64,000 nucleotides of DNA from Candidatus Heimdallarchaeota archaeon (GCA_030668875.1 DAOVER010000005.1:26597-90596); one strand, 5' to 3'; counted from the first letter of the stretch, positions 23,184 through 41,389 are shown. Notes: generated by a model from the sequence alone, not told the origin. Program-made: numbers and translations.

Positions 23184-23268
23184 GCCAGGATATCCAAGCG
23201 GCTACGGAGATGCATTGGAAATGCATTGCCCTTGTGGCGCCGGGGTTCGAATCCCCGTCCTGGCTCCA
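23184..23268 (+). tRNA. tRNA-Ser (anticodon GGA), type II with 14-nt variable arm, CCA encoded
   Basis: Folded by hand: acceptor GCCAGGA/TCCTGGC, anticodon stem ATGCA/TGCAT with loop TTGGAAA, T-arm CGGGG-TTCGAAT-CCCCG. Confidence 0.8.
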
Positions 23269-23943: not shown

Positions 23944-25221
23944 ATGGGTGGAATTAAGAGAAAAAGAAAGAAAATCGAAACGCCAGGTCATCCTTATGAT
24001 AAAGCTCGCTTAGAGAGAGAACTCCCTCTTGTTGGTGCTTATGGTTTAAGAAACAAGCGCGAATTATGGAAAGCAAGAACTATTCTTTCTACAGCTAGAC
24101 AACAAGCTAGAGGCTTACTAGCTCTTGACCCTGAAATTAGAAAAGTTAGAGAACAAGAACTTCTTTCAAGACTCTCTCGTTTTGGTATGTTATCTCAGAA
24201 TAGCAATCTTGACTCTGTTTTAGCACTTGAAATTAAAGTCATTCTTGAAAGAAGACTTCAAACAATTGTATTCAGAAAAGGTTTAGCATCCTCTCCGTAC
24301 CAAGCTCGTCAATTTATTGCTCACAGACACATAGCTATTGGAACTGGTGTTGCAACATCTCCTAGCAGATTAATCACAATAGCTGAAGAGGAGATAGTCA
24401 ACTACGCTCCCCGTTCTCCACTGAATGATCAAACTCATCCTTCGCGACCTCAAGCACCTCCTGCTTTTGATGCGGGGCAACCTGAGAAAAGGGAAGAACA
24501 TAAGCGTGAAAGAACTGGAAGAGATGGCAAACCTAGAAGGAAAGAAGCTCCAAAGAAGGAAACTAAACCAGGAGTTAAACCAAAACCAGAGGTAAAGAAG
24601 GAAACTCCAAAGAAAGAAGCTCCAAAGAAGGAAACTAAACCAGGAGTTAAACCAAAACCAGAGGTAAAGAAGGAAACTCCAAAGAAAGAAGTTCCAAAGA
24701 AGGAAACTCCAAAACCAGAGGTAAAGAAGGAAACTCCAAAGAAAGAAGTTCCAAAGAAGGAAACTCCAAAACCAGAGGTAAAGAAGGAAACTCCAAAACC
24801 AGAGGTAAAAAAGGAAACTCCAAAACCAGAGGTTAAAACAAAGCCAGAAGTGAAGAAAGAGGTTCCAAAGAAGGAAACTAAACCAGAAGTTAAAACAAAG
24901 CCAGAGGTAAAGAAGGAAACTCCAAAACCAGAGGTAAAGAAGGAAACTCCAAAACCAGAGGTTAAAACAAAGCCAGAAGTAAAGAAAGAAGCTCCAAAGA
25001 AGGAAACTAAAATCTCTGACCTTGACATCTCTTTGATAAAAGGTATTGGTGCAAAAACTGCCATGCTTCTCAAAGAAAATGGCTTTGATACTGTTGGTAA
25101 GATTGCTAAGGCAACTACTGAAGAACTTTCCAAAGTTCCAGGTGTTGGTCCCGCTACTGCATCAGCTATGAATAGTGAAGCTAAAGTTTTGCTTTCAAAG
25201 AAAGCTGAGGATAAGAAGTAG
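23944..25221 (+). CDS. rps4: 30S ribosomal protein S4 (uS4) with ~245-aa C-terminal extension: Lys-rich KPEVKKETPK repeats plus a helix-hairpin-helix module
   Basis: Canonical archaeal S4 N-terminus MGGIKRKRKKIETPGHPYD...GLRNKRELWK, then repeats, then IKGIGAKTA...VPGVGPATA HhH. Confidence 0.85.
   Translation: MGGIKRKRKKIETPGHPYDKARLERELPLVGAYGLRNKRELWKARTILSTARQQARGLLALDPEIRKVREQELLSRLSRFGMLSQNSNLDSVLALEIKVILERRLQTIVFRKGLASSPYQARQFIAHRHIAIGTGVATSPSRLITIAEEEIVNYAPRSPLNDQTHPSRPQAPPAFDAGQPEKREEHKRERTGRDGKPRRKEAPKKETKPGVKPKPEVKKETPKKEAPKKETKPGVKPKPEVKKETPKKEVPKKETPKPEVKKETPKKEVPKKETPKPEVKKETPKPEVKKETPKPEVKTKPEVKKEVPKKETKPEVKTKPEVKKETPKPEVKKETPKPEVKTKPEVKKEAPKKETKISDLDISLIKGIGAKTAMLLKENGFDTVGKIAKATTEELSKVPGVGPATASAMNSEAKVLLSKKAEDKK
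24541..25010 (+). repeat. in-frame tandem repeat (30/60/72-nt units) encoding KPEVKKETPK-type Lys/Pro/Glu-rich repeats inside the S4 gene
   Basis: Repeated ccaaaaccagaggtaaagaaggaaactccaaag units are visible directly. Confidence 0.7.
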
Positions 25222-25805: not shown

Positions 25806-26252
25806 ATGACAATTACTAAAGCTAAAATATTTGCATGTGAAATCTGTGGGAAAGAGTTTGGAAGAAAGGACAATCTAGGAAGGCACAAAATAACAGTTCA
25901 TTCCAAATCACAGAAGCATAAATGTCCAAAGTGCAATTTTTCTTCAACAAGAAAAGATAGTCTTGATAAACATATCAAAGAAGTTCACAGTGAAGTAAAG
26001 CAATATTCTTGTAAAATGTGTGGAGAAAGGTTCACACAAAAAGGGAGTATGGAAAGGCATATAGATTCCTCTCATAAAGACGTTTTTTCTTTTGCATGTC
26101 CCAAATGCAATTCAATTTTCTCAAGAAAAGATAGCTTGTTACGACATATCAGAAGTGTGCACGAAGGTATAAGACCTCACAAATGTTCAGAATGTGGTAA
26201 AAGCTTTCAACATAAACATCATCTGAAGGATCACCTAATTTTAGGTCATTGA
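25806..26252 (+). CDS. tandem C2H2 zinc-finger protein (5 fingers)
   Basis: Five C-x2-C-x12-H-x4-H units, e.g. CEICGKEFGRKDNLGRHKITVH. Confidence 0.8.
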   Translation: MTITKAKIFACEICGKEFGRKDNLGRHKITVHSKSQKHKCPKCNFSSTRKDSLDKHIKEVHSEVKQYSCKMCGERFTQKGSMERHIDSSHKDVFSFACPKCNSIFSRKDSLLRHIRSVHEGIRPHKCSECGKSFQHKHHLKDHLILGH

Positions 26253-26261
26253 GGGAAGGAA

Positions 26262-27425
26262 ATGAGTAACTCGGAAAAAATAATAATGCGACCAACTTGT
26301 GAAATCTGCGGTCTTAGTTTTTCAAGAAAAGACAGTTTGTATAGACACAAACGATCAGTTCATTCAGAGTCAAAGAAATATAGCTGTACAGAATGCAATC
26401 TCACATTTTCTCGTAAAGATACACTGGATCGTCACATCAATGATGTCCACAAACAAATAAGGAAATATATTTGTACCATATGTGACGAGAAGTTCAAACA
26501 AGCGGGTGCTCTAAAAAGACATATCCAAACAATGCATGAGAAGAATATTAGTTATGAATGTCCAAACTGTGATGCAGCATTCCCGCGTAAAGACAACCTA
26601 GACAGACACATAAATGCCGTTCATTTAAACCTCCGACCCCACATTTGCCAGGAATGTGGTGCAGCTTTCAAACTACCTGATCACCTTAAGCAGCACATTA
26701 TTTCCATACATACTGACCGGCGTCAATATGTTTGTGATGAATGTGGTTTTGCTTTCAAACTTCGTCAACATCTAAATGATCATGTCAAAGTTGTTCACCT
26801 AGGTCTTCGTTCTTATGCTTGTGAGGAATGTGATTCTTCTTTTGCTCATGCTCGTGCTCTTAAGCAACACATTATTTCTGTTCATACCGATGAACTTCCT
26901 TATGTTTGCGAGAAATGTAAGAGAGGATTTGCAGATCCTAGTCATCTATATAGGCATGAAAAAGCTGAAGCTTGTTGGTTTACAACTACTACTGCCTACA
27001 AATGGGAAGAGCTTTGTAAAGAGATAGCTGAGATTCTTTTAGAGGAAAAGAATTGGGAGTGGAAACCTACTATAGAAACACCTGAGTTGGTTGAACAGAC
27101 TAGAGTGCAGCCTGAGATTGTTATCTATAATGATGATGGTACGATGGATTTTATCGATGCTAAGAGGTCTACTTATGCTATTTTCAAGGAGAAGGATCTG
27201 GTAGTTTATCCTAAGGTGGCTAGGAGGGTGGAGTTCTGGTGCCTCTACGGTAAAACCAAGGGGATATTTGAAGAGGAGGAAGGGGTGGAAGCGAAATCAA
27301 GTGAAGAAATCATTGGCAAACTAGAAAAGGAAGATTCGCATGATGGACAGAGAGTAAGGAATCTAATAATGAAGATTAGTTTATTGAAAAAGGGAATAAG
27401 ATTTGAAGGACAACAGACACTGTAG
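26262..27425 (+). CDS. tandem C2H2 zinc-finger protein (~9 fingers) with ~140-aa non-finger C-terminal domain
   Basis: Repeated C-x2-C-x12-H-x4-H units through to ~aa 240. Confidence 0.8.
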   Translation: MSNSEKIIMRPTCEICGLSFSRKDSLYRHKRSVHSESKKYSCTECNLTFSRKDTLDRHINDVHKQIRKYICTICDEKFKQAGALKRHIQTMHEKNISYECPNCDAAFPRKDNLDRHINAVHLNLRPHICQECGAAFKLPDHLKQHIISIHTDRRQYVCDECGFAFKLRQHLNDHVKVVHLGLRSYACEECDSSFAHARALKQHIISVHTDELPYVCEKCKRGFADPSHLYRHEKAEACWFTTTTAYKWEELCKEIAEILLEEKNWEWKPTIETPELVEQTRVQPEIVIYNDDGTMDFIDAKRSTYAIFKEKDLVVYPKVARRVEFWCLYGKTKGIFEEEEGVEAKSSEEIIGKLEKEDSHDGQRVRNLIMKISLLKKGIRFEGQQTL

Positions 27426-27464
27426 TCATAGAAAAACAGATTGTACAATAAAGTCTTAAAGAAC

Positions 27465-28283
27465 TCAATACCCATACCTTGAGGGTAAGCTTGATCTGTA
27501 ATCATAACTTCTAAACAAGTTTTCAATTAACCGAGGGATAGATTCGCCCCTAAAATCTCTAACTGTGTCTATTATATCGTCATCTTTACCCTCTAACAGC
27601 TTCAACCAAAGCTGAGGTTTGTATCTTACAATGTTGGAAAGCATCCAAGAACCTACAAATGCATCAAATGGGTTATAACTTCCTATCACATCAACAAATG
27701 AAGGAACAGATCTCTTTTCCAAATAATCAGAAATATTTGGAAAGCCCTTGAGATTGTCTTCAGCTAAAAGAAGTAGTAAGCTGTAAAAAACACCTTTATC
27801 ATAGACTTTAGCATGCATATACGGTCTGTTTTCTACATATTTGCCTTTTTTCGAAAGACCATGATGAGTGAAGAAAAACACCTCGTCTTTCATTTCATAT
27901 TCAAGACAGAACACTCCTTTGACACATTGTAATAATGCATAGTATTCAACAAGTGGGCTAGAGTTTTCATCCATTTTTAAGGCAGTTTTAAACATCTCAT
28001 AGATCTGTTGAAAATAGATACTAGAATAAATAGCTATTTCAGTATAATCGATTTCAAAATCCCTAGTTTTCACTAGATTTGCTTTCTTATGGATATTTTC
28101 TAGAAGATTAATTTTTGCATCTTTACGCTCTCTTTCAGTCTTATGGATTCTTCTAGATTTCATTTGCTCTTCTTTTGAATCACAGGTTGGATTGAACCTG
28201 GTAATCAATTTTTTCTTAAGATAATATGGAATAGAGTATTTCTCAAGATTATAGAGAACGATTTGGTGATACTTGTCAATCAT
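27465..28283 (-). CDS. hypothetical protein, distal gene of a two-gene operon with the PLD nuclease (2-nt spacing)
   Basis: 272-aa ORF with no recognisable motif. Confidence 0.35.
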   Translation of the reverse strand: MIDKYHQIVLYNLEKYSIPYYLKKKLITRFNPTCDSKEEQMKSRRIHKTERERKDAKINLLENIHKKANLVKTRDFEIDYTEIAIYSSIYFQQIYEMFKTALKMDENSSPLVEYYALLQCVKGVFCLEYEMKDEVFFFTHHGLSKKGKYVENRPYMHAKVYDKGVFYSLLLLLAEDNLKGFPNISDYLEKRSVPSFVDVIGSYNPFDAFVGSWMLSNIVRYKPQLWLKLLEGKDDDIIDTVRDFRGESIPRLIENLFRSYDYRSSLPSRYGY

Positions 28284-28285
28284 TA

Positions 28286-29068
28286 TTAAACCTCAGTTTT
28301 ATTAATTTTCAATCGGATTGGTTTCAGTTGTCTATAGCAAGAACGGCAGGCAGGTTTATTTGTTGAAATACTTACCTCAGCTCCACATATGTGACAATAA
28401 TTTCCCTTAACAAAACCTCTTCTCTTATCTTTCCAACAATCCTTACACCTTATAACGTGGGTCTCTATTGCATCAAGAGCTATTTTTTTCTTGCAAACTA
28501 TGCAAAAACCCAGTTCTTCTTGATTTTCAGCATAAACAGTAAAGTGTTCTCCTTCTTGTTTGAATTGTAGCTCAATCGCCTGTTTACCATTATCAATAGC
28601 TCTAATTTCTTCTCCATTTCTAACAAGAACTGAGATATATTTATCAATCAATTCTAAGTTAGGCAAATCGTCTTCACCTTCGAAATCGACTCCAATCTCA
28701 AAGTTATCCTTTAGTGAATGGTAATAAAGATTCATTGAAGTAGTTAATGCTCTATCTCCATTATAATAACACTTTGCATGAAGATTAGGTACAAGCCAAA
28801 TTTCATCAGAATAATCGTATAGCTTATCTCTTATAGCTTGTGTTTTCGTCAACCTTTTCTCAGCTGATTTATCATCTGGTTTTCTTGTAATAAAGACAAT
28901 TTGCAGATCTTTGTTTTGTTCTATTAAACTATCCATTAACCTAGACCACTGACCATCTTTTTTTTCAAGTTGAATATAGGGGCTAACTATATGTATGTGT
29001 TTAGTAGCCCTTTCAACTATTTCCTCTATAGCCCCAAATATAGAGCCAGTGCTTGTTAGAATTTTCAC
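28286..29068 (-). CDS. phospholipase-D-family (HKD) nuclease with C-terminal zinc ribbons
   Basis: LHAKCYYNGDRALTTSMNL is a HxK...D...S.N HKD motif. C-terminus has CIVCKK..C..C...C.ICG...C..C. Confidence 0.55.
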   Translation of the reverse strand: MKILTSTGSIFGAIEEIVERATKHIHIVSPYIQLEKKDGQWSRLMDSLIEQNKDLQIVFITRKPDDKSAEKRLTKTQAIRDKLYDYSDEIWLVPNLHAKCYYNGDRALTTSMNLYYHSLKDNFEIGVDFEGEDDLPNLELIDKYISVLVRNGEEIRAIDNGKQAIELQFKQEGEHFTVYAENQEELGFCIVCKKKIALDAIETHVIRCKDCWKDKRRGFVKGNYCHICGAEVSISTNKPACRSCYRQLKPIRLKINKTEV

Positions 29069-29122
29069 TTCTTTTCACTTCCCATCCAAGCAAATAATTA
29101 AATAAACTATAAAAGTTTTTAG

Positions 29123-29139
29123 GGGATTTATTGTTTGAT
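29123..29139. repeat. left 17-bp direct repeat GGGATTTATTGTTTGAT flanking the IS
   Basis: Identical copy at 30142-30158. Confidence 0.6.
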
Positions 29140-30141
29140 GTTAACTCAACTAAGATCGGTTACACTTTTGGGCAGGATATCTTTGGGAGGTTGGTTCATA
29201 AATCTTTCACCTGGAGTTTGGAGGTTGATTCCTTGATGAGGGCGGAAGAAGTTGTAATAGTCCCTATAGCGCCGGAGGTCAGCGTTACAATAAGCTAATC
29301 CCAGCCGCTTCAGCTCTCTGACGGTTGTACCATGCTGGCGCTCTACTTTCCCACAAGTCTCAGGGTGGAAGAAACGGCTGCGGATATGCTTTATTCCTTC
29401 CTGAGCGAGCACGCGGGTGAAGGTACTTGTCCCTCCTCGCATAGAGTGGAACTGTGCTCCATTGTCTGTTAGTACTTGCTGGGGACGCCTATAAAGCTGG
29501 AAGCAGTGGTGTAACCTTGTCAAGATCTCTTGCTGGCTAATAGGATGGGTGTAGAGTCTACTCTCCAGGAGGAAGCGGGAGTGGTCATCAATGATGGTTA
29601 AAAGATAAAGGTGTTGTCCTTGCTCTTCCACCCAGAAGGGACCTTTGATATCCAGTTGCCAGAGGTCATTGGGTTTGGGTCGTTCGAATCTCTTTCTCGC
29701 CTTCTTCTTGTACGGTTTCTTTCTCCAAGGAGGTTCTCCTTCTCGTTGGAGAGTCTTCCAGATGGTGGTGTGGGAGAGCACCAAGCCTTTCCTCTTGAAC
29801 CATTGCTCAGTCTGCATGATGTTCAAGCCATAGGCTCGTCTCAAGGTGAGGATCTTCTTCTTTATCTGTGGTGTTACCTTTCTCCTTATGCATCTTGGTC
29901 GTCGAGAGCGTTCTTCCCACCATTTTCCCTTGGGGTTCTCACGATAACGTCTTAACCAGGTGTAGACGAATTTTCTTGAGACCATGTACTGTCGAGCAAG
30001 GTGGGTGATAGGTGTTCTTTTCAAAGCCTTTTTAACTACGCGTTTCCTTATAAGTGTCGGGTTACTGTTCGGGTTCATTTAACTCATTTACCCACGGTAA
30101 CCCCTCTTATTTAACTGTCACCAATGTGGGTGGAGTTAACA
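29139..30141 (-). mobile_element. IS481-like insertion sequence (~1.0 kb), GC-rich relative to its surroundings
   Basis: Terminal inverted repeats TGTTAACTCAAC (29139-) and its complement GTGGAGTTAACA (-30141). Single DDE transposase ORF inside. Flanked by 17-bp direct repeats. Confidence 0.7.
29146..30078 (-). CDS. DDE transposase, IS481 family (HTH + rve integrase core)
   Basis: WQLDIKG...IIDDHSR...LTDNGAQF rve-core motifs. Confidence 0.8.
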   Translation of the reverse strand: MNPNSNPTLIRKRVVKKALKRTPITHLARQYMVSRKFVYTWLRRYRENPKGKWWEERSRRPRCIRRKVTPQIKKKILTLRRAYGLNIMQTEQWFKRKGLVLSHTTIWKTLQREGEPPWRKKPYKKKARKRFERPKPNDLWQLDIKGPFWVEEQGQHLYLLTIIDDHSRFLLESRLYTHPISQQEILTRLHHCFQLYRRPQQVLTDNGAQFHSMRGGTSTFTRVLAQEGIKHIRSRFFHPETCGKVERQHGTTVRELKRLGLAYCNADLRRYRDYYNFFRPHQGINLQTPGERFMNQPPKDILPKSVTDLS

Positions 30142-30158
30142 GGGATTTATTGTTTGAT
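30142..30158. repeat. right 17-bp direct repeat GGGATTTATTGTTTGAT flanking the IS
   Basis: Identical copy at 29123-29139. Confidence 0.6.
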
Positions 30159-30175
30159 TAATGAAAAGTTCTGTA

Positions 30176-31246
30176 TCATCGTTGTCTTATAACATAATTT
30201 ACAATTGTTTCAACCTCTTTTGAAGAAAATGTTTCTTCGAAATAAGAGATATAATTCACTATTTCTTTAAGTGAAAGAACTTTCACAAACTGAAATTGCT
30301 CTTTAGGTTTAGCATTAGTCATTAGAAGCACACTACGAATAGCGATTTTCTTTTTTCCCCAATGATGAGAACTAAGACGAAGAGAACCACTAGAAACAGA
30401 GCTATTTAGAAGAGTGAAAAGAGCAAAATTTGCACGTCTAATTTGTTTAACTGGTGAAAACAGGTTCAGATTTTGTAGAGATTTCTCGCTCCAGTTTTTA
30501 GTTTCAAGTAAAAACACTCCTGAAGGACCAACAACAAGATGGTCAACTTGTATAGATAATATTTTATCATTTTCTTTTCTATTGCAAATTGGACGATTAA
30601 AAGACATCTGAAGATCATTGATAACAGTGAATGTATCTGGAAGTTTCTTTAGTTCTTCAGTAACTTGTTGTTCTCCTATGGTTCCAGAAATTAGGGTGTA
30701 GTTATCATCTAAAATTCTATTTATGAGATTGATTCGGTTAGTATAATTTTGAGATCGTTTTGATATTAAGGTTTCAAAGTTGGTTTCACGATAGGTTACA
30801 TCGCGTTCTAGATTCTTAATTTTCTTGGAAAGATGACGAAAGGGTTTTTCAACTTCATCTATAAAATAGTGTGTCAACTTGTCAAGTCTTTTAGAAAGTT
30901 GATTGAGTTTAATTTTGTAAAATAGGAGCTTGAAAGGATTCTTAGTCGATGAGGAATATTGAATGATCTTAGAAGGGATTAGTTCTTTTTCTTCATTAAG
31001 TAATTTTGTTTGATTAGATATCATCTCTTGATATTGATTTGTGAGTAGAGTATAATCGGATTTAAGTTGACTAATTTCAGCAAGAAGTTTCTCTTTTTGC
31101 TGTTCTTGATGCTGTGAAATAGAATTTTTCCAAGTTTTCTTAAAAGTCTGTATTGATTCAAGAGTTGAAAACTCTCTGATGTTATTTTGTTTTAAGACAT
31201 ATAGAAGATGATTAAGAGAACTAGAATTACCATATATGCGAGCCAA
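30176..31246 (-). CDS. NERD (nuclease-related domain) protein with N-terminal coiled coil
   Basis: The C-terminal half, IQVDHLVVGPSGVFLLETKNW, fits the NERD domain. Confidence 0.55.
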   Translation of the reverse strand: MARIYGNSSSLNHLLYVLKQNNIREFSTLESIQTFKKTWKNSISQHQEQQKEKLLAEISQLKSDYTLLTNQYQEMISNQTKLLNEEKELIPSKIIQYSSSTKNPFKLLFYKIKLNQLSKRLDKLTHYFIDEVEKPFRHLSKKIKNLERDVTYRETNFETLISKRSQNYTNRINLINRILDDNYTLISGTIGEQQVTEELKKLPDTFTVINDLQMSFNRPICNRKENDKILSIQVDHLVVGPSGVFLLETKNWSEKSLQNLNLFSPVKQIRRANFALFTLLNSSVSSGSLRLSSHHWGKKKIAIRSVLLMTNAKPKEQFQFVKVLSLKEIVNYISYFEETFSSKEVETIVNYVIRQR

Positions 31247-31400
31247 AGAAATACCTCCATTCCAACGGAATATTCAATCAAACAATCTTAATAAAACTTG
31301 TTATGAACAGGTATTCGTCCATTTTATAATTTAGACCGTAGAATGTAGTTTTACTCATTCACATTTTTCTTTTATTTTTGTAATATTCTTATATACTGAA

Positions 31401-31859
31401 ATGTTAGACTGTTTCTCAATGGGTCTCAACATCGATTTATCCAAACTTGATTACGCCTTTCATCGTAAACCTTTGCTTATAGGTGGGAAAGTTATGGAAT
31501 ATTATAATCTACGTAAAGCAGGTGATGATGTAGACTTTGTTGTAGCTTTAGAAGACTATGAAGGCTTAAAAGAAGCCTATCCAGAACCAGAATACCAGAG
31601 GGGCTTATTTGGTGATCTTGGAGTAACAGTTGATGAATCAGAGGTTTGGAAATGTATATGTCTTTTCGAATATAAATTCTTATCAGAAAAAGCATTAGAA
31701 ATGGAAGAATATCTAATCATATCATTAGAGAAATTGCTCTTTTTGAAAGTTTTAGCAATGCACAAAAGAAAATATCGAAAAGATGTAAAACTGATAAGGC
31801 AAAAGATTCTGGACAATAAATATGATGACGAAGAGTGGAAGGAGAAATATATGAAATAA
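31401..31859 (+). CDS. putative minimal nucleotidyltransferase (Pol-beta superfamily)-like protein
   Basis: LIGGKVMEYYNLRKAGDDVDFVV fits hGG-x12-DhDh. Confidence 0.3.
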   Translation: MLDCFSMGLNIDLSKLDYAFHRKPLLIGGKVMEYYNLRKAGDDVDFVVALEDYEGLKEAYPEPEYQRGLFGDLGVTVDESEVWKCICLFEYKFLSEKALEMEEYLIISLEKLLFLKVLAMHKRKYRKDVKLIRQKILDNKYDDEEWKEKYMK

Positions 31860-31885
31860 CATTGTAGAAAGGAGCTTACTTCTTC

Positions 31886-32335
31886 TCAATTCTCCTTTAT
31901 CGTACCGGTCAATTCGAGTAATTGTTCATATTGCCAAACGCGTTCCTTAGTATCAACTTTAGCAGCATAATTTGCTGCATGAACAGCGTGCCCTGCAACA
32001 TGGACAGTAGCAGTTGCATGACCAGCTGCACGTGCAACTGTACAAGCTACAGCGTTATCAACTTCTCTAGCCGCGGCATGAGCAGCAAATGCTGCAGAGC
32101 GTACCTTACCTACAGAGATCTCCCCATATGTCCATGAATGTGCTGCTTCTATCGCTTTCCTCGGTCGGTCATCATTGGGAAATTTATCTTCAAAATAGGA
32201 TAACACATGTTCCACACAATAAATCGCCCAGATCACCAATGATCTTTTTTCCATTTTGCTTGTAATCTCTGCAATCTTCTTCTTAAGGTCGCTCTCGGAA
32301 TTAAGGGCAGAACTATCCTCACTCATACTTACCAT
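31886..32335 (-). CDS. Ala/His-rich helical protein, function unknown
   Basis: AAHAAAREV...AARAAGHATATVHVAGHAVHAANYAA. Confidence 0.3.
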   Translation of the reverse strand: MVSMSEDSSALNSESDLKKKIAEITSKMEKRSLVIWAIYCVEHVLSYFEDKFPNDDRPRKAIEAAHSWTYGEISVGKVRSAAFAAHAAAREVDNAVACTVARAAGHATATVHVAGHAVHAANYAAKVDTKERVWQYEQLLELTGTIKEN

Positions 32336-32502
32336 CTGAATGGTTGTTTAAAGCAGATAAATAAACGATGTATTTAGTTCATTTAAATCTAAGCAAAATG
32401 CAAGAAAATGATAAGCTTGTCTGATAAAGATAAATCCATCTTACCAAATTTAGCCATAAGTTTTTTCTAATAGCAACATTTTTGTCAACTTAGGTACAAT
32501 CG

Positions 32503-33333
32503 ATGTCTATTGAGAAAGTTAAGGATAATGTTTATGCAATTACTGATGGTAGCACACGCGGGAATGTAGCTGCTTATGTTTTACCTACACAGATTGTCTT
32601 TGTTGATTCAGGTATGCACATTCCTTTAATAAAGAAATTTAGGGAGTATATTGAAAAAGAAACTGGAAAAAAGGCTTCTACTCTTTTTATAACACATGAG
32701 CATGGAGATCATGTTTTCGGCAATCAAATTTTTGAAGACTGTGAGATAATTACATCAGAATTAGCAAATGAAGCCATGATAAAATCAAAACAAAATGATT
32801 GGACACCAATAAATATAGAAGAATGGAAGAAAAATGCAGAAGATCCAACTGCATTAGAAGGGTTACAAATTGTTTTCCCCAATAAAACCTTTGCAGATGA
32901 GTATGAGATGGTAGATGGGGATGTAAAAATCATAGTTAAAAGAACAGGCGGTCATACTGAAGGTTCAAGTTATGTTTATTGTCCAAACTACAAAGTAATG
33001 TTCGGTGGTGACAATTTATTCAACCACAGTTTTCCTTGGGGTGGAACACCTACTGCCGACCCTTTAAAATGGATTAAAGCCTTAGAAGAATACCTCTCAC
33101 TTGACGTGGAGCATTATATTCCCGGACATGGTTCAACATCTGACAAGAAACCTTTAGAGGAATTTCGTGCATATCTGAACAAGGTTGTTACTCTTATGCA
33201 AGATATGTTTGTTGAAGGAAAGAGTGAAGAAGAAATTCTTGAAGCAGCAGATAAAATAGGATATTACCCACCTAGAAGGGAGCAATGGAAGGCTCTAACG
33301 TTAAAGAGATGGTATGATGTTGTGTTAAATTAA
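32503..33333 (+). CDS. metallo-beta-lactamase-fold hydrolase
   Basis: THEHGDH (HxHxDH) motif. Confidence 0.75.
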   Translation: MSIEKVKDNVYAITDGSTRGNVAAYVLPTQIVFVDSGMHIPLIKKFREYIEKETGKKASTLFITHEHGDHVFGNQIFEDCEIITSELANEAMIKSKQNDWTPINIEEWKKNAEDPTALEGLQIVFPNKTFADEYEMVDGDVKIIVKRTGGHTEGSSYVYCPNYKVMFGGDNLFNHSFPWGGTPTADPLKWIKALEEYLSLDVEHYIPGHGSTSDKKPLEEFRAYLNKVVTLMQDMFVEGKSEEEILEAADKIGYYPPRREQWKALTLKRWYDVVLN

Positions 33334-38854: not shown

Positions 38855-41389
38855 CTATTTTTTTGGAGAGCTTGGATAAGTTCCGATTGGCATTAGCACT
38901 CGCTTTACACTAGAGACTATACCGTGTTCCTTTTCAGGAAGAGTTATTGCATCAATCTGTGCTTCACCTAATGCAACCAATTCATTCTTCAAGGTATAAA
39001 TCGCTACCATGTCGCCTGCTTTGAATTCTTCTGAATACCTTGAAACACCTGGTAAAGCTAATGGGGCACCATGACAGATAGTATTAACCGCACTGTCTTT
39101 GATAATAACTTGTGGTATATGTCTCACCCCATATTCCATAGGTAGAATAATGTTTCGTAAGGGATTTTCATCTTTTTCTTCTCTATACCATGCAAAAGCA
39201 TCATATAAATCATGGAGAGTGGATAAGAAATCATTTTCCGAAAATGGTCCAGAGCGCGTTCGTCTAAGTTCCTTCATATGAGCGCCACACGATAAACTTT
39301 GTCCAATATCATGGCAATTAGAAGACACAAAACCTGTTTCAATGAGAAAATTATGAGTTTTTGGTACAGTCATATCATAAACATAACCAGTACTTTGGAC
39401 ATTCTCAATTGATTCTATTTTTTCAATAATGAAATCATCCAGTTCTGGTAACATTATGTGTGTAGAAGCAGTTTTGTAGAACCCTCGCGTCATAGGGATA
39501 TTTTCTTTTAAAATTCTATCCAAATTTCCACCCATTATTTTTTTCAATTCTGTTTTATGGGAAATTAAATAATTCGCAAAATGAAAACCAATATGATATT
39601 TATCTCCATATTCATGATCAGAATTCAGTTCTTCGAACTCAGTGAATTTTCTGATTTTCTCTGGATGGTTAGAACCAATTTCATTGATGAATTTCAACTC
39701 TGCACCTATCGTACCAACAGACACTATATACATTGTAGTGATATAATTCTTAAAATTAACTTCTCTTGAAAAAATAGTATTTTCAATTTCTAATTTAAGT
39801 AGTAATTTATGAAGTATTATTGCTTCACTTCTGTTAACCGTGTATAAAGAAATACGAGATTTAACACTATGAGAATATGTTTTTATTTGTACAGACCCAT
39901 CCCCATCAAAATAACCTCGTAAGTAGGAACAAATCAATTTAGGTTCAAGTTGGAGCAAAGGAGAAAAATCAGCATTCTTTTTTGGGCTTCTTATTCCTAA
40001 AGATGCTGCTATAGTAGCAAGAAGAGAGTTTGTAAGAGATACACCCCAAACACCATTTTTATCTTGATTAACCGAATAATGTGAATTTGGGAATAATTCT
40101 TTGTAAATTTCAACATACTTATCAATTAGTTCCTTATTTGTATTATTAAAAATTAATCTTGTATAACGTACTGTATTTTTCTCTTTTGAATTATTTCCAT
40201 CTGAAGCAATTAATCCTAAAAGATAAAATAAAGATTCATTTAGCTCTCTTAGCTTAATGATTTGACCTTTTACTTGCTTAAATCTATAAATTTGTTCTTT
40301 AACATCTTCATATATTCCAGCTAGTTTAAGATGTTTTATTTTTATCGAGTAAGAAGAGTTTGAAACAAATGGCTGCCTACTAACATCTAGTTTTCTGCTC
40401 ATTTCTCTAATACTACCATATTTTTTAATGAAGGCGTTTTTACATTTTTCCTTTATTTCATCTTGTTCTATAAGGTACTCATCATCCAAAAGATCTGACA
40501 CAATTAGTTTTTTACTAGTTAAGTTTGGTTTAAAACTTTTAACTAAAAAATCACCAACTCTTAATTTTCTAGCTTCAGTCATATTATAACCAACATCTGT
40601 AGATTTCAACATTTCATGGTCTGGTGTAATAATTATTGAAATACCAGTTTTCATTTTTAGTTTAATTAAAACTGGAGGGGAAGGGATGGTTTGAACTGCA
40701 GATGGATCTTTTTGATCTATTTTTCCATCAACAAAAGAAAAGATTGTTTTTGGACTTTCAACGAAATCTTTAGCTGAAACTGATCCTTCAGCTGTAAGAA
40801 TCTGAGTATTAGGATGTAAACAATATTTTCTAACATAAAATCCTGCTTGAGAGCTTATCCTAAAAAGAACTTCTCTTTCCCTTATATCAAGAATCTCTGA
40901 ATTATAGATGGTTCGAATTCTTAATACTCTTTTTACACTTGCCCTTAATGGGGGTCTTTGATACAAATCACCAACATAATCACCAACAATAGATCTTATT
41001 CTTTCTTCATCAATATCGGCGTGTAATCGCATATTTCCAACGTATTCCTTTCCAGCGAGGAGAAGTGTATCCAATATTCGAGTTGCTTTTCCTAAAGCCG
41101 TAGGAAGAACACCGGTTACCTGTGGGTCCAAGGTTCCAGAATGACCCGCTTTTGGAATGCCAAGAATCTTTTTTACATAACTAACTACTTCATGGCTAGT
41201 TGGATTAGGAGGTTTGTCCAAGTTGATGATACCATAATTCAATAATTCTGCAATTGTTCGATTTGAAGGCTTTTTTCCCCATTTAAAATCAGTTGTATCT
41301 CTGGAAAGTATCTTTAAGGGGTACTTATTGTCATCAAATGATAACTTTGGGGTGGAAAAAACTAATGTCATGATATCATCACGGAGCAC
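38855..41389 (-). CDS. cbf5: tRNA pseudouridine synthase Cbf5/TruB interrupted by a large intein
   Basis: TruB motif GHSGTLDP, C-terminal PUA domain, and the conserved Y.R..CHDIG split by 502 aa. Confidence 0.85.
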   Translation of the reverse strand: MLRDDIMTLVFSTPKLSFDDNKYPLKILSRDTTDFKWGKKPSNRTIAELLNYGIINLDKPPNPTSHEVVSYVKKILGIPKAGHSGTLDPQVTGVLPTALGKATRILDTLLLAGKEYVGNMRLHADIDEERIRSIVGDYVGDLYQRPPLRASVKRVLRIRTIYNSEILDIREREVLFRISSQAGFYVRKYCLHPNTQILTAEGSVSAKDFVESPKTIFSFVDGKIDQKDPSAVQTIPSPPVLIKLKMKTGISIIITPDHEMLKSTDVGYNMTEARKLRVGDFLVKSFKPNLTSKKLIVSDLLDDEYLIEQDEIKEKCKNAFIKKYGSIREMSRKLDVSRQPFVSNSSYSIKIKHLKLAGIYEDVKEQIYRFKQVKGQIIKLRELNESLFYLLGLIASDGNNSKEKNTVRYTRLIFNNTNKELIDKYVEIYKELFPNSHYSVNQDKNGVWGVSLTNSLLATIAASLGIRSPKKNADFSPLLQLEPKLICSYLRGYFDGDGSVQIKTYSHSVKSRISLYTVNRSEAIILHKLLLKLEIENTIFSREVNFKNYITTMYIVSVGTIGAELKFINEIGSNHPEKIRKFTEFEELNSDHEYGDKYHIGFHFANYLISHKTELKKIMGGNLDRILKENIPMTRGFYKTASTHIMLPELDDFIIEKIESIENVQSTGYVYDMTVPKTHNFLIETGFVSSNCHDIGQSLSCGAHMKELRRTRSGPFSENDFLSTLHDLYDAFAWYREEKDENPLRNIILPMEYGVRHIPQVIIKDSAVNTICHGAPLALPGVSRYSEEFKAGDMVAIYTLKNELVALGEAQIDAITLPEKEHGIVSSVKRVLMPIGTYPSSPKK
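39317..40822 (-). other. intein (502 aa) with LAGLIDADG homing-endonuclease domain inside cbf5
   Basis: Starts with Cys (CLHPNTQIL), ends ...GFVSSN before the +1 Cys of CHDIG. Carries LLGLIASDGN and LRGYFDGDGS LAGLIDADG blocks. Confidence 0.7.

Follow-up and report, generated by a model that had tools for sequence, protein, structure and literature searches.

A 64,000-nt stretch of DNA from Candidatus Heimdallarchaeota archaeon (GCA_030668875.1, DAOVER010000005.1:26597–90596; hereafter the window) contains, at positions 27465–31246, an islet of four minus-strand units: the genes for a coiled-coil protein with a NERD domain, a phospholipase D (PLD) superfamily protein with zinc ribbons (PLD-ZnR), and a YaaC-like protein, as well as an IS481-family insertion sequence (IS). 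The islet is likely a small variable slot in the heimdallarchaeial chromosome, which harbors evolutionarily separable, co-oriented genes of the nuclease type and has received a recent IS481-family insertion that was most likely neutral. The sequence features were confirmed by open reading frame (ORF) listing and profile searches, and the three gene units and the IS all lie where an earlier note on this DNA, made from the sequence alone, had placed them.

The slot is bordered by a conserved cluster of S13, S4, S11, and C2H2 zinc-finger genes on one side and by a conserved gene for a protein of 152 amino acids (aa) on the other. In the window and in L004, a Logan contig from a different sample, it contains the YaaC-like, PLD-ZnR, and NERD genes. 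In the locus L012, it holds a PLD gene (51% identical), an unrelated reverse-strand gene of 298 aa, and a NERD gene; the PLD gene is followed after 20 nt by a zinc-finger gene, and a YaaC-like remnant is absent. The loci L005–L008 contain a YaaC-like gene (49% identical) at the identical place, where it converges on the C2H2 zinc-finger gene that adjoins S11 and S4, together with unrelated genes of 185 and 90 aa and without remnants of PLD or NERD. Different gene sets occupy the same syntenic slot in related Heimdallarchaeota metagenome-assembled genomes (MAGs), in agreement with the accessory island proposed earlier, and the interpretation as an islet of independent genes is well supported by these presence/absence patterns. 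Judged by domain chemistry and neighborhoods, the slot genes probably have a defensive role. No tRNA was found at the islet borders (the sole tRNA found is located at 23184–23268), and Rfam gave no match in the region 26000–33000. The islet comprises the following features:

27465–28283, minus strand: YaaC-like protein, 272 aa; predicted to consist mainly of alpha helices, with a core fold similar to HEPN; conserved syntenic place by a C2H2 zinc-finger gene
28286–29068, minus strand: PLD-ZnR, 260 aa; single-HKD phospholipase-D-superfamily (nuclease-type) domain and two C-terminal CxxC...CxxC zinc ribbons
29094–29114, minus strand: putative archaeal core promoter of the PLD-ZnR and YaaC-like genes, read from the sequence; identical in the IS-free L004
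29123–29138, no strand: target-site duplication, copy 1, 16 bp, GGGATTTATTGTTTGA on the plus strand; exact direct repeat, single copy in L004
29139–30141, minus strand: IS481-family insertion sequence, 1003 bp; ends set by five other copies
29146–30078, minus strand: transposase, 310 aa, with helix-turn-helix (HTH) and rve DDE domains; full length and apparently intact according to profile matches
30142–30157, no strand: target-site duplication, copy 2, 16 bp; exact direct repeat
30176–31246, minus strand: coiled-coil and NERD (PD-(D/E)xK-type) protein, 356 aa; PF08378

The insertion of the IS and the accompanying target-site duplication are essentially shown by an empty site. In L004, the order NERD, PLD-ZnR, and YaaC-like is the same, the spacer between NERD and PLD-ZnR measures 94 nt, the IS is absent, and the target is present in a single copy; the window, after removal of the IS and one repeat, aligns collinearly to this contig. 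As the empty site has a single target copy, the direct repeat in the window arose by duplication of the target site, and the IS arrived after the strains of the window and L004 had separated. That the insertion is recent is evident from this empty site and from the perfect state of the duplication. Contigs from three other samples (L001–L003) contain the same junction and end approximately 30 nt inside the IS, as would be the case if the element is repeated or polymorphic; the window has a single copy of it. The exact 17-mer GGGATTTATTGTTTGAT was found at 29123–29139 and 30142–30158 and nowhere else in the window, in which the next-best match has three mismatches and is at chance level. The empty site answers the question, raised earlier, of whether the 17-mer is a target duplication or a pre-existing repeat in favor of the duplication. 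The direct repeat flanking the IS is exact, as described before, but its length had been given as 17 bp. Since every aligned copy of the IS has T as its first and A as its last base, the duplicated target comprises 16 bp and the IS 1003 bp, and the 17th base is coincidental. The 12-bp imperfect terminal inverted repeats reported for the element (TGTTAACTCAAC / GTGGAGTTAACA) were found in the sequence. The ends of the TGT...ACA type, TGTTAACTC...GAGTTAACA, form imperfect inverted arms of 29 nt and are conserved in five other copies.

The element transposed recently into the 94-nt spacer between NERD and PLD-ZnR, where the DDE transposase would have introduced staggered cuts 16 nt apart, and the repair of the gaps would have generated the 16-bp duplication. 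In the direction of transcription, the NERD ORF ends 34 nt before the IS, and the GTG start of PLD-ZnR follows 70 nt after it. The position close upstream of PLD-ZnR had been recognized, but the distance of 77 nt given for it counts from the transposase stop codon and not from the IS end. The stretch from the duplication to the PLD-ZnR start, CTAAAAACTTTTATAGTTTATTTAATTATTTGCTTGGATGGGAAGTGAAAAGAA, includes TATA-like elements and does not differ from that of the IS-free L004. The putative promoter consists of TTTTATA (29108–29114) and TTTATTTAATTA (29094–29105), 25–45 nt upstream of the GTG start. Because the insertion lies between the NERD stop codon and the TATA-like element of PLD-ZnR, it is most likely neutral: the core promoter of the PLD-ZnR and YaaC-like genes appears intact and conserved, which speaks against the disruption of the operon that the earlier note had considered. 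At most, the co-oriented transposase gene possibly adds read-through transcription into PLD-ZnR and YaaC-like.

The assignment of the element to the IS481 type was corroborated. The best family model of the transposase is NCBIfam NF033577 (IS481; 7.7e-60, 202.8 bits, profile positions 2–284 of 284, curated cutoff 224), and IS3, the next family model, reached only 87.5 bits. In Pfam, rve (2.7e-15), HTH_28, and rve_3 were matched, and the conserved stretches LWQLD, LTDNG, and GKVER of the DDE region are present. With 1003 bp, a single ORF of 310 aa, TGT...ACA ends, and short inverted repeats, the element has the size and ends of IS481 members (approximately 0.95–1.3 kb, one ORF). An exact-sequence look-up of the window transposase returned no record. 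The target-site duplication had been considered unusually long for IS481. However, sister copies of the element display a perfect 15-bp duplication (L173, 82% nucleotide identity), a perfect 16-bp duplication (L172, 54% aa identity, from the closed Ca. Heimdallarchaeum endolithica genome), and a decayed one with 12 of 16 positions retained (L016, an internally deleted 565-bp derivative). Duplications in the IS481 family range from 2 to 15 bp and are mostly 6 bp long, but "not a few" members, including the archaeal ISA0963-1 and ISMac4, duplicate about 15 bp (PMC10045372). The 16 bp in the window exceed the published IS481 maximum by one bp and fit the class of 15–16 bp (PMC10045372).

A comparison of DDE domains, based on BLAST scores and a subset of the alignment in the supplement of PMC10045372, gave the highest scores (67–86 bits) for a sub-lineage with variable or long duplications (ISCje1, ISBxe3, ISBrsp4, ISA0963-1, and ISAar28). 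The duplications of the top-scoring elements measure 13 bp (ISCje1), 7 bp (ISBxe3), 9 bp (ISBrsp4), and 15 bp (ISA0963-1). Because of the sister copies, the subgroup in the literature, and the affinity of the DDE domain, the long duplication is regarded as a trait of the clade and not as an oddity. The Heimdallarchaeota element shares with the long-duplication sub-lineage (ISA0963-1 and ISMac4, 15 bp; ISCje1, 13 bp; ISAar28 and ISBli20, 15 bp) the size of about 1 kb, the single ORF with HTH and DDE (rve) domains, the TGT...ACA termini with short imperfect inverted repeats, and, with its 15–16 bp, the long duplication. It differs from the bacterial IS481 relatives in its compact transposase (310 compared to about 385 aa), and its DDE domain is at most 35% identical to those of the named ISs compared. 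The eukaryotic IS481EU/Banshee transposons of parabasalids likewise have TGT...ACA termini and duplications of 15/16 bp (PMC10045372). IS481 itself and IS481EU, however, scored at most 56 bits against the Heimdallarchaeota DDE domain, lower than several bacterial and archaeal members (69–86 bits). The element was therefore rejected as the closest prokaryotic relative of IS481EU, as far as BLAST scores on the alignment subset allow, and the comparison yielded no evidence of a special link between Asgard archaea and eukaryotes.

A protein-guided scan with one genome per species identified five related IS loci, all in Heimdallarchaeota MAGs. The protein search delineated a compact clade of 310-aa transposases, in which every relative with at least 50% identity and an organism name belongs to Heimdallarchaeota; bacterial IS481 transposases follow with 33%–40% identity. 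The clade, seen so far only in Heimdallarchaeota, stands out from the IS481 family by a GC content about 15 points above that of its hosts. Locally, the GC content is 0.49–0.51 inside the IS and 0.29–0.35 around it; the whole IS has 0.477 compared to 0.347 in the rest of the window, and the GC content at third codon positions amounts to 0.54 in the transposase gene and 0.21–0.30 in the adjoining genes. The same excess (0.46–0.48 compared to 0.30–0.32 in the flanks) was found for the clade copies in the window, L014, L015, L173, and L174 despite up to 18% nucleotide divergence, and the distant copy L172 has a GC content of 0.40 in flanks of 0.25. The contrast on which a recent horizontal arrival had been based is therefore real, but it does not date the arrival, because the IS clade, which resides in this lineage, has the excess as a permanent feature, also in its diverged copies. 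Derivatives of the IS occur in other Heimdallarchaeota MAGs: L016 (1913–2477, 565 bp) is internally deleted and resembles a miniature inverted-repeat transposable element, and L017 (1937–2400) and L018 (1937–2315) are truncated. From these deleted and truncated derivatives, it is evident that the clade has resided and decayed in those MAGs. A further full copy in L174 (1137–2140) is located near a contig end and has flanks without a matching direct repeat, possibly due to an assembly chimera or an IS-mediated rearrangement. The clade restricted to Heimdallarchaeota, whose GC content stays about 15 points above that of its AT-rich hosts, may represent a separate, weaker novelty. With its ends, duplication length, empty site, and deleted derivative, the element constitutes a defined and apparently active Asgard (Heimdallarchaeota) IS; such an element helps to annotate fragmented Asgard MAGs, as contigs break at it. 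The long direct repeat together with the GC-rich patch is the ordinary signature of one IS481 subgroup.

The PLD-ZnR protein matches PLDc_2 (9.6e-07, 29.1 bits, cutoff 27) and DZR_2 (8.5e-04). It contains the catalytic HKD motif H97-A-K99...D105...S111-M-N113, a single HxK, four CxxC pairs, and no transmembrane or hydrophobic segment. H97, K99, N113, and six of the eight zinc-ribbon cysteines (C189, C192, C225, C228, C241, and C244) are invariant in 24 family members. Since the cardiolipin-synthase model reached only 13.5 bits (cutoff 787), the view of the protein as a soluble single-HKD protein similar to Nuc and DrmC, and not a cardiolipin synthase, was upheld; these traits, together with zinc ribbons of the nucleic-acid type, indirectly suggest a nucleic acid rather than a lipid as the probable substrate. 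One HxK...D/N motif per chain is also found in Nuc of pKM101, BfiI, Zucchini, DrmC (DISARM), DpdK (Dpd), and MkoC (Mokosh), and like these single-HKD nucleases and defense proteins, which have about 130–150 aa, PLD-ZnR is soluble. In the PLD family, one HKD motif per chain means that the active site requires a dimer. The PADLOC scan suggested for the islet gave a divided result. The PLD domain matches models of DrmC, DpdK, and MkoC, and DrmC models reach 4.9e-11 over this domain only, but the matches remain far below the cutoffs (27.6 bits compared to 133 for DrmC, NF038319; 19.2 bits compared to 100 for DpdK), which separates PLD-ZnR from DISARM and Dpd, and no other component of DISARM, Dpd, or Mokosh was matched among the six islet proteins scanned, which gave no further PADLOC match. 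The invariant C-terminal double zinc ribbon sets PLD-ZnR apart from DrmC, DpdK, and MkoC as a stand-alone family of about 240 aa. A PDB sequence search with PLD-ZnR gave nothing significant.

The PLD-ZnR family is present in bacteria and archaea (149 matches in the protein search and at least 557 metagenome stretches), and the window protein is a divergent member. Phage records contained no match, and only two partial matches, confined to the PLD domain, were found on plasmids. Relatives of the PLD domain alone (query residues ~1–134), without zinc ribbons, are encoded on 73 viral or proviral contigs (L099–L171), and PHROG 9329, which is of unknown function, matches the PLD domain (3.1e-12). 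The neighborhood was surveyed in 80 PLD-ZnR metagenome loci (461 kb), of which 78 immediate neighbors were scanned with Pfam and PADLOC. The PLD-ZnR genes usually have their own spacers, and gaps and neighbors are highly variable. Restriction and abortive infection (Abi)-type genes account for roughly a fifth of the 78 neighbors, a rough count made without a matched control (Mrr_cat, three; NERD, three; HNH, three to four; GmrSD, two; ResIII, two; McrBC; a type I restriction endonuclease; AbiEi; AbiLi; and several PADLOC candidate families (PDC)). Based on the family chemistry and these neighborhoods, PLD-ZnR would most likely act as an effector: it would function as a homodimeric HKD nuclease, whose zinc ribbons would bind nucleic acid, in a single-gene response of the restriction type or against mobile genetic elements (MGEs). 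The combination of a PLD domain and a double zinc ribbon thus characterizes a widespread, uncharacterized family, often found by restriction and Abi genes, and is a reasonable single-gene candidate for defense screens.

The 272-aa protein had been described as unknown. It matches Pfam YaaC (PF14175) with 42.4 bits, above the gathering score of 27, and the match was found in all 12 close homologs. The YaaC-like subfamily is rare: a search of 1.84 billion proteins yielded 146 representatives (E ≤ 1e-3). Its members are shorter (approximately 270–300 aa) than the canonical YaaC proteins of 340–380 aa, which were retrieved by the subfamily profile as distant relatives. In the structural model, the bundle of helices at the core can be superposed on HEPN domains (UPF0332 AF0298 and sacsin HEPN). 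In contrast to HEPN RNases, the invariant motif is R220-Y-x-P-x-x-W226, without a histidine at +5 to +7, so that the Rx4-6H motif is lacking. The model gives a first structural hint that the core of YaaC-family proteins may resemble HEPN but lack the RNase motif. Pfam contains no sequence-level link between YaaC-like and HEPN families, Foldseek searches of the model against PDB and BFVD gave no match at E ≤ 1e-3, a PDB sequence search returned nothing significant, and a scan of viral contigs detected no YaaC-like protein. In the locus L176 (4678–6258), the YaaC-like gene is followed 36 nt downstream by a HEPN_AbiV gene (1.3e-20); hhalign indicated no relation between the YaaC-like profile and this neighboring AbiV HEPN protein. 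Elsewhere, YaaC-like genes adjoin a convergent gene of an MmeI-type restriction–modification enzyme (L009), a divergent NYN gene (L011), or nothing recognizable (L175). A review of HEPN (PMC3710099) contains no mention of YaaC, and the literature search on YaaC with PLD, defense, or HEPN and on PF14175 found nothing relevant. YaaC-like proteins as HEPN-derived accessory proteins of nuclease genes would be a credible residual novelty.

The NERD domain (PF08378; 1.1e-13, 52.1 bits, cutoff 22.1) forms the C-terminal part of the third protein. The PD-(D/E)xK-type residues D235, E248, and K250 are invariant in an alignment of six sequences, which places the protein among the NERD-domain nucleases with their D...ExK signature; it differs from them by a coiled-coil-like N-terminal region of about 185 aa. 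None of the known defense-system models was matched, and the only NCBIfam match, MADS6, scored 22.7 bits (cutoff 460). The NERD gene adjoins PLD-ZnR in L004 and in three of the 80 distant loci, and the 298-aa gene separates the two in L012. Between the window and L004, the PLD-ZnR, YaaC-like, and zinc-finger genes are 91% identical at the nucleotide level (96% aa), compared to 82% (79% aa) for NERD. This jump in divergence at the NERD–PLD-ZnR spacer suggests recombination or a faster evolution of NERD.

Several observations weigh against an islet of independent genes with a neutral insertion. The 2-nt distance between PLD-ZnR and YaaC-like is kept in L004 and might reflect a functional coupling specific to this lineage. 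NERD, although a rare domain, is found next to PLD-ZnR with unexpected frequency, and calling the genes independent may go too far. A defense role would be deduced from guilt by association, and many of the PLD-ZnR neighbors are housekeeping genes (ILVD, amidohydrolase, and EF-Tu). The archaeal promoter was assigned by eye, and the transposase scores just under the NCBIfam IS481 cutoff. A dedicated pair was put forward in the earlier proposal of a PLD-plus-partner defense module. In such a module, the HEPN-like YaaC-like protein would serve PLD-ZnR as, for example, a sensor, regulator, or antitoxin. The YaaC-like ORF begins 2 nt after the PLD-ZnR stop codon, and given this spacing the two genes are probably co-transcribed here. 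The retention of spacing and strand in L004, the equal conservation of both genes (96% identity, compared to only 79% for NERD), the HEPN-like core of the model, and the adjacency of YaaC-like homologs to other nucleic-acid enzymes (HEPN_AbiV, NYN, and MmeI-type) are consistent with such a module. However, none of the 80 PLD-ZnR metagenome loci contains a YaaC-like ORF; in L012, PLD directly precedes the zinc-finger gene without a YaaC-like remnant; and YaaC-like genes occur without PLD in five other lineages, namely at the identical syntenic place in L005–L008, where a PLD remnant is missing, and in four more among L009–L011, L175, and L176. Moreover, the YaaC-like protein has no PADLOC match. 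A conserved pair of PLD-ZnR and YaaC-like is thereby largely refuted, and a dedicated two-gene defense module is very unlikely. Overall, the result is mostly a clean-up, and a close spacing of genes is by itself not sufficient to define a defense system.

A two-nuclease unit of coiled-coil NERD and PLD-ZnR, split by the IS and uncoupled in its expression, is likewise unlikely. The two genes are neighbors in three Heimdallarchaeota lineages with 51%–96% PLD identity and in three of the 80 very distant loci, two of which encode NERD proteins with the full coiled-coil and NERD architecture at about 22% identity. NERD is a rare domain, and three cases among 78 neighbors are well above expectation, by an estimate made without a control. 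On the other hand, 77 of the 80 loci are devoid of NERD, the orientation varies (co-directional here, divergent in L093, and convergent in L029 and L076), an unrelated reverse-strand gene lies between the two in L012, and NERD diverges much faster than PLD-ZnR between the window and L004. Mrr, HNH, and GmrSD are equally frequent neighbors of PLD-ZnR, which points to a defense-island effect. That PLD-ZnR and YaaC-like have no defensive function at all, but housekeeping or other cellular roles, for instance in the turnover of nucleic acids or lipids, in an islet of ordinary gene flux, is highly improbable. YaaC-like is fixed beside ribosomal and zinc-finger genes in several Heimdallarchaeota MAGs, many PLD-ZnR neighbors are metabolic, and the family is absent from phage records, with merely PLD-domain matches on two plasmids; no defense function is known for canonical Bacillus YaaC. 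These points are opposed by the variable presence of PLD-ZnR and YaaC-like among close relatives, by the single HKD motif, the lack of transmembrane segments, and the negligible cardiolipin-synthase score of PLD-ZnR (13.5 bits compared to 787), and by the share of restriction and Abi-type genes, about a fifth, among its immediate neighbors.

The variable slot with separable genes hence remains the preferred interpretation. A more far-reaching proposal is rather unlikely: PLD-ZnR would be the effector of an unnamed anti-MGE system widespread in bacteria and archaea, acting alone or with a facultative coiled-coil NERD protein, and the Heimdallarchaeota lineage would have recruited a modular regulator from the HEPN-like YaaC family, which pairs elsewhere with AbiV and NYN. 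In its narrower form, PLD-ZnR as an undescribed defense effector, possibly with a facultative coiled-coil NERD neighbor, is a credible candidate for residual novelty. Titles, abstracts, and term counts of the literature on NERD, PLD, and zinc ribbons and on Asgard defense name neither the family nor the pair.

The surroundings of the islet contain further genes. The gene of the 152-aa protein (31401–31859, plus strand), located between NERD and the gene of an Imm5_like immunity-type protein, has no family match and is 71% identical to a gene in L005. The Imm5_like gene (31886–32335, minus strand; 2.9e-39) lies at the islet border in a region with a local GC content of 0.44–0.47 and is kept beside NERD in L012. 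On the other side, two C2H2 zinc-finger proteins are encoded at 25806–26252 and 26262–27425 (plus strand) directly after S11, and their position is kept in all related Heimdallarchaeota loci. The larger one (26262–27425) has eight fingers (zf-C2H2, 2.2e-43) and a C-terminal half without fingers. The gene of the ribosomal protein S4 (23944–25221, plus strand) includes a tandem repeat of about 200 aa rich in K, P, and E (KPEVKKETPKKE...) and a C-terminal helix-hairpin-helix (Pfam S4 and HHH_5), in which the S4 genes of the related MAG loci end as well. A Cbf5/TruB-type pseudouridine synthase (DKCLD, TruB_N, and PUA) is encoded at 38855–41389 on the minus strand and is split by an intein that carries a LAGLIDADG endonuclease domain.

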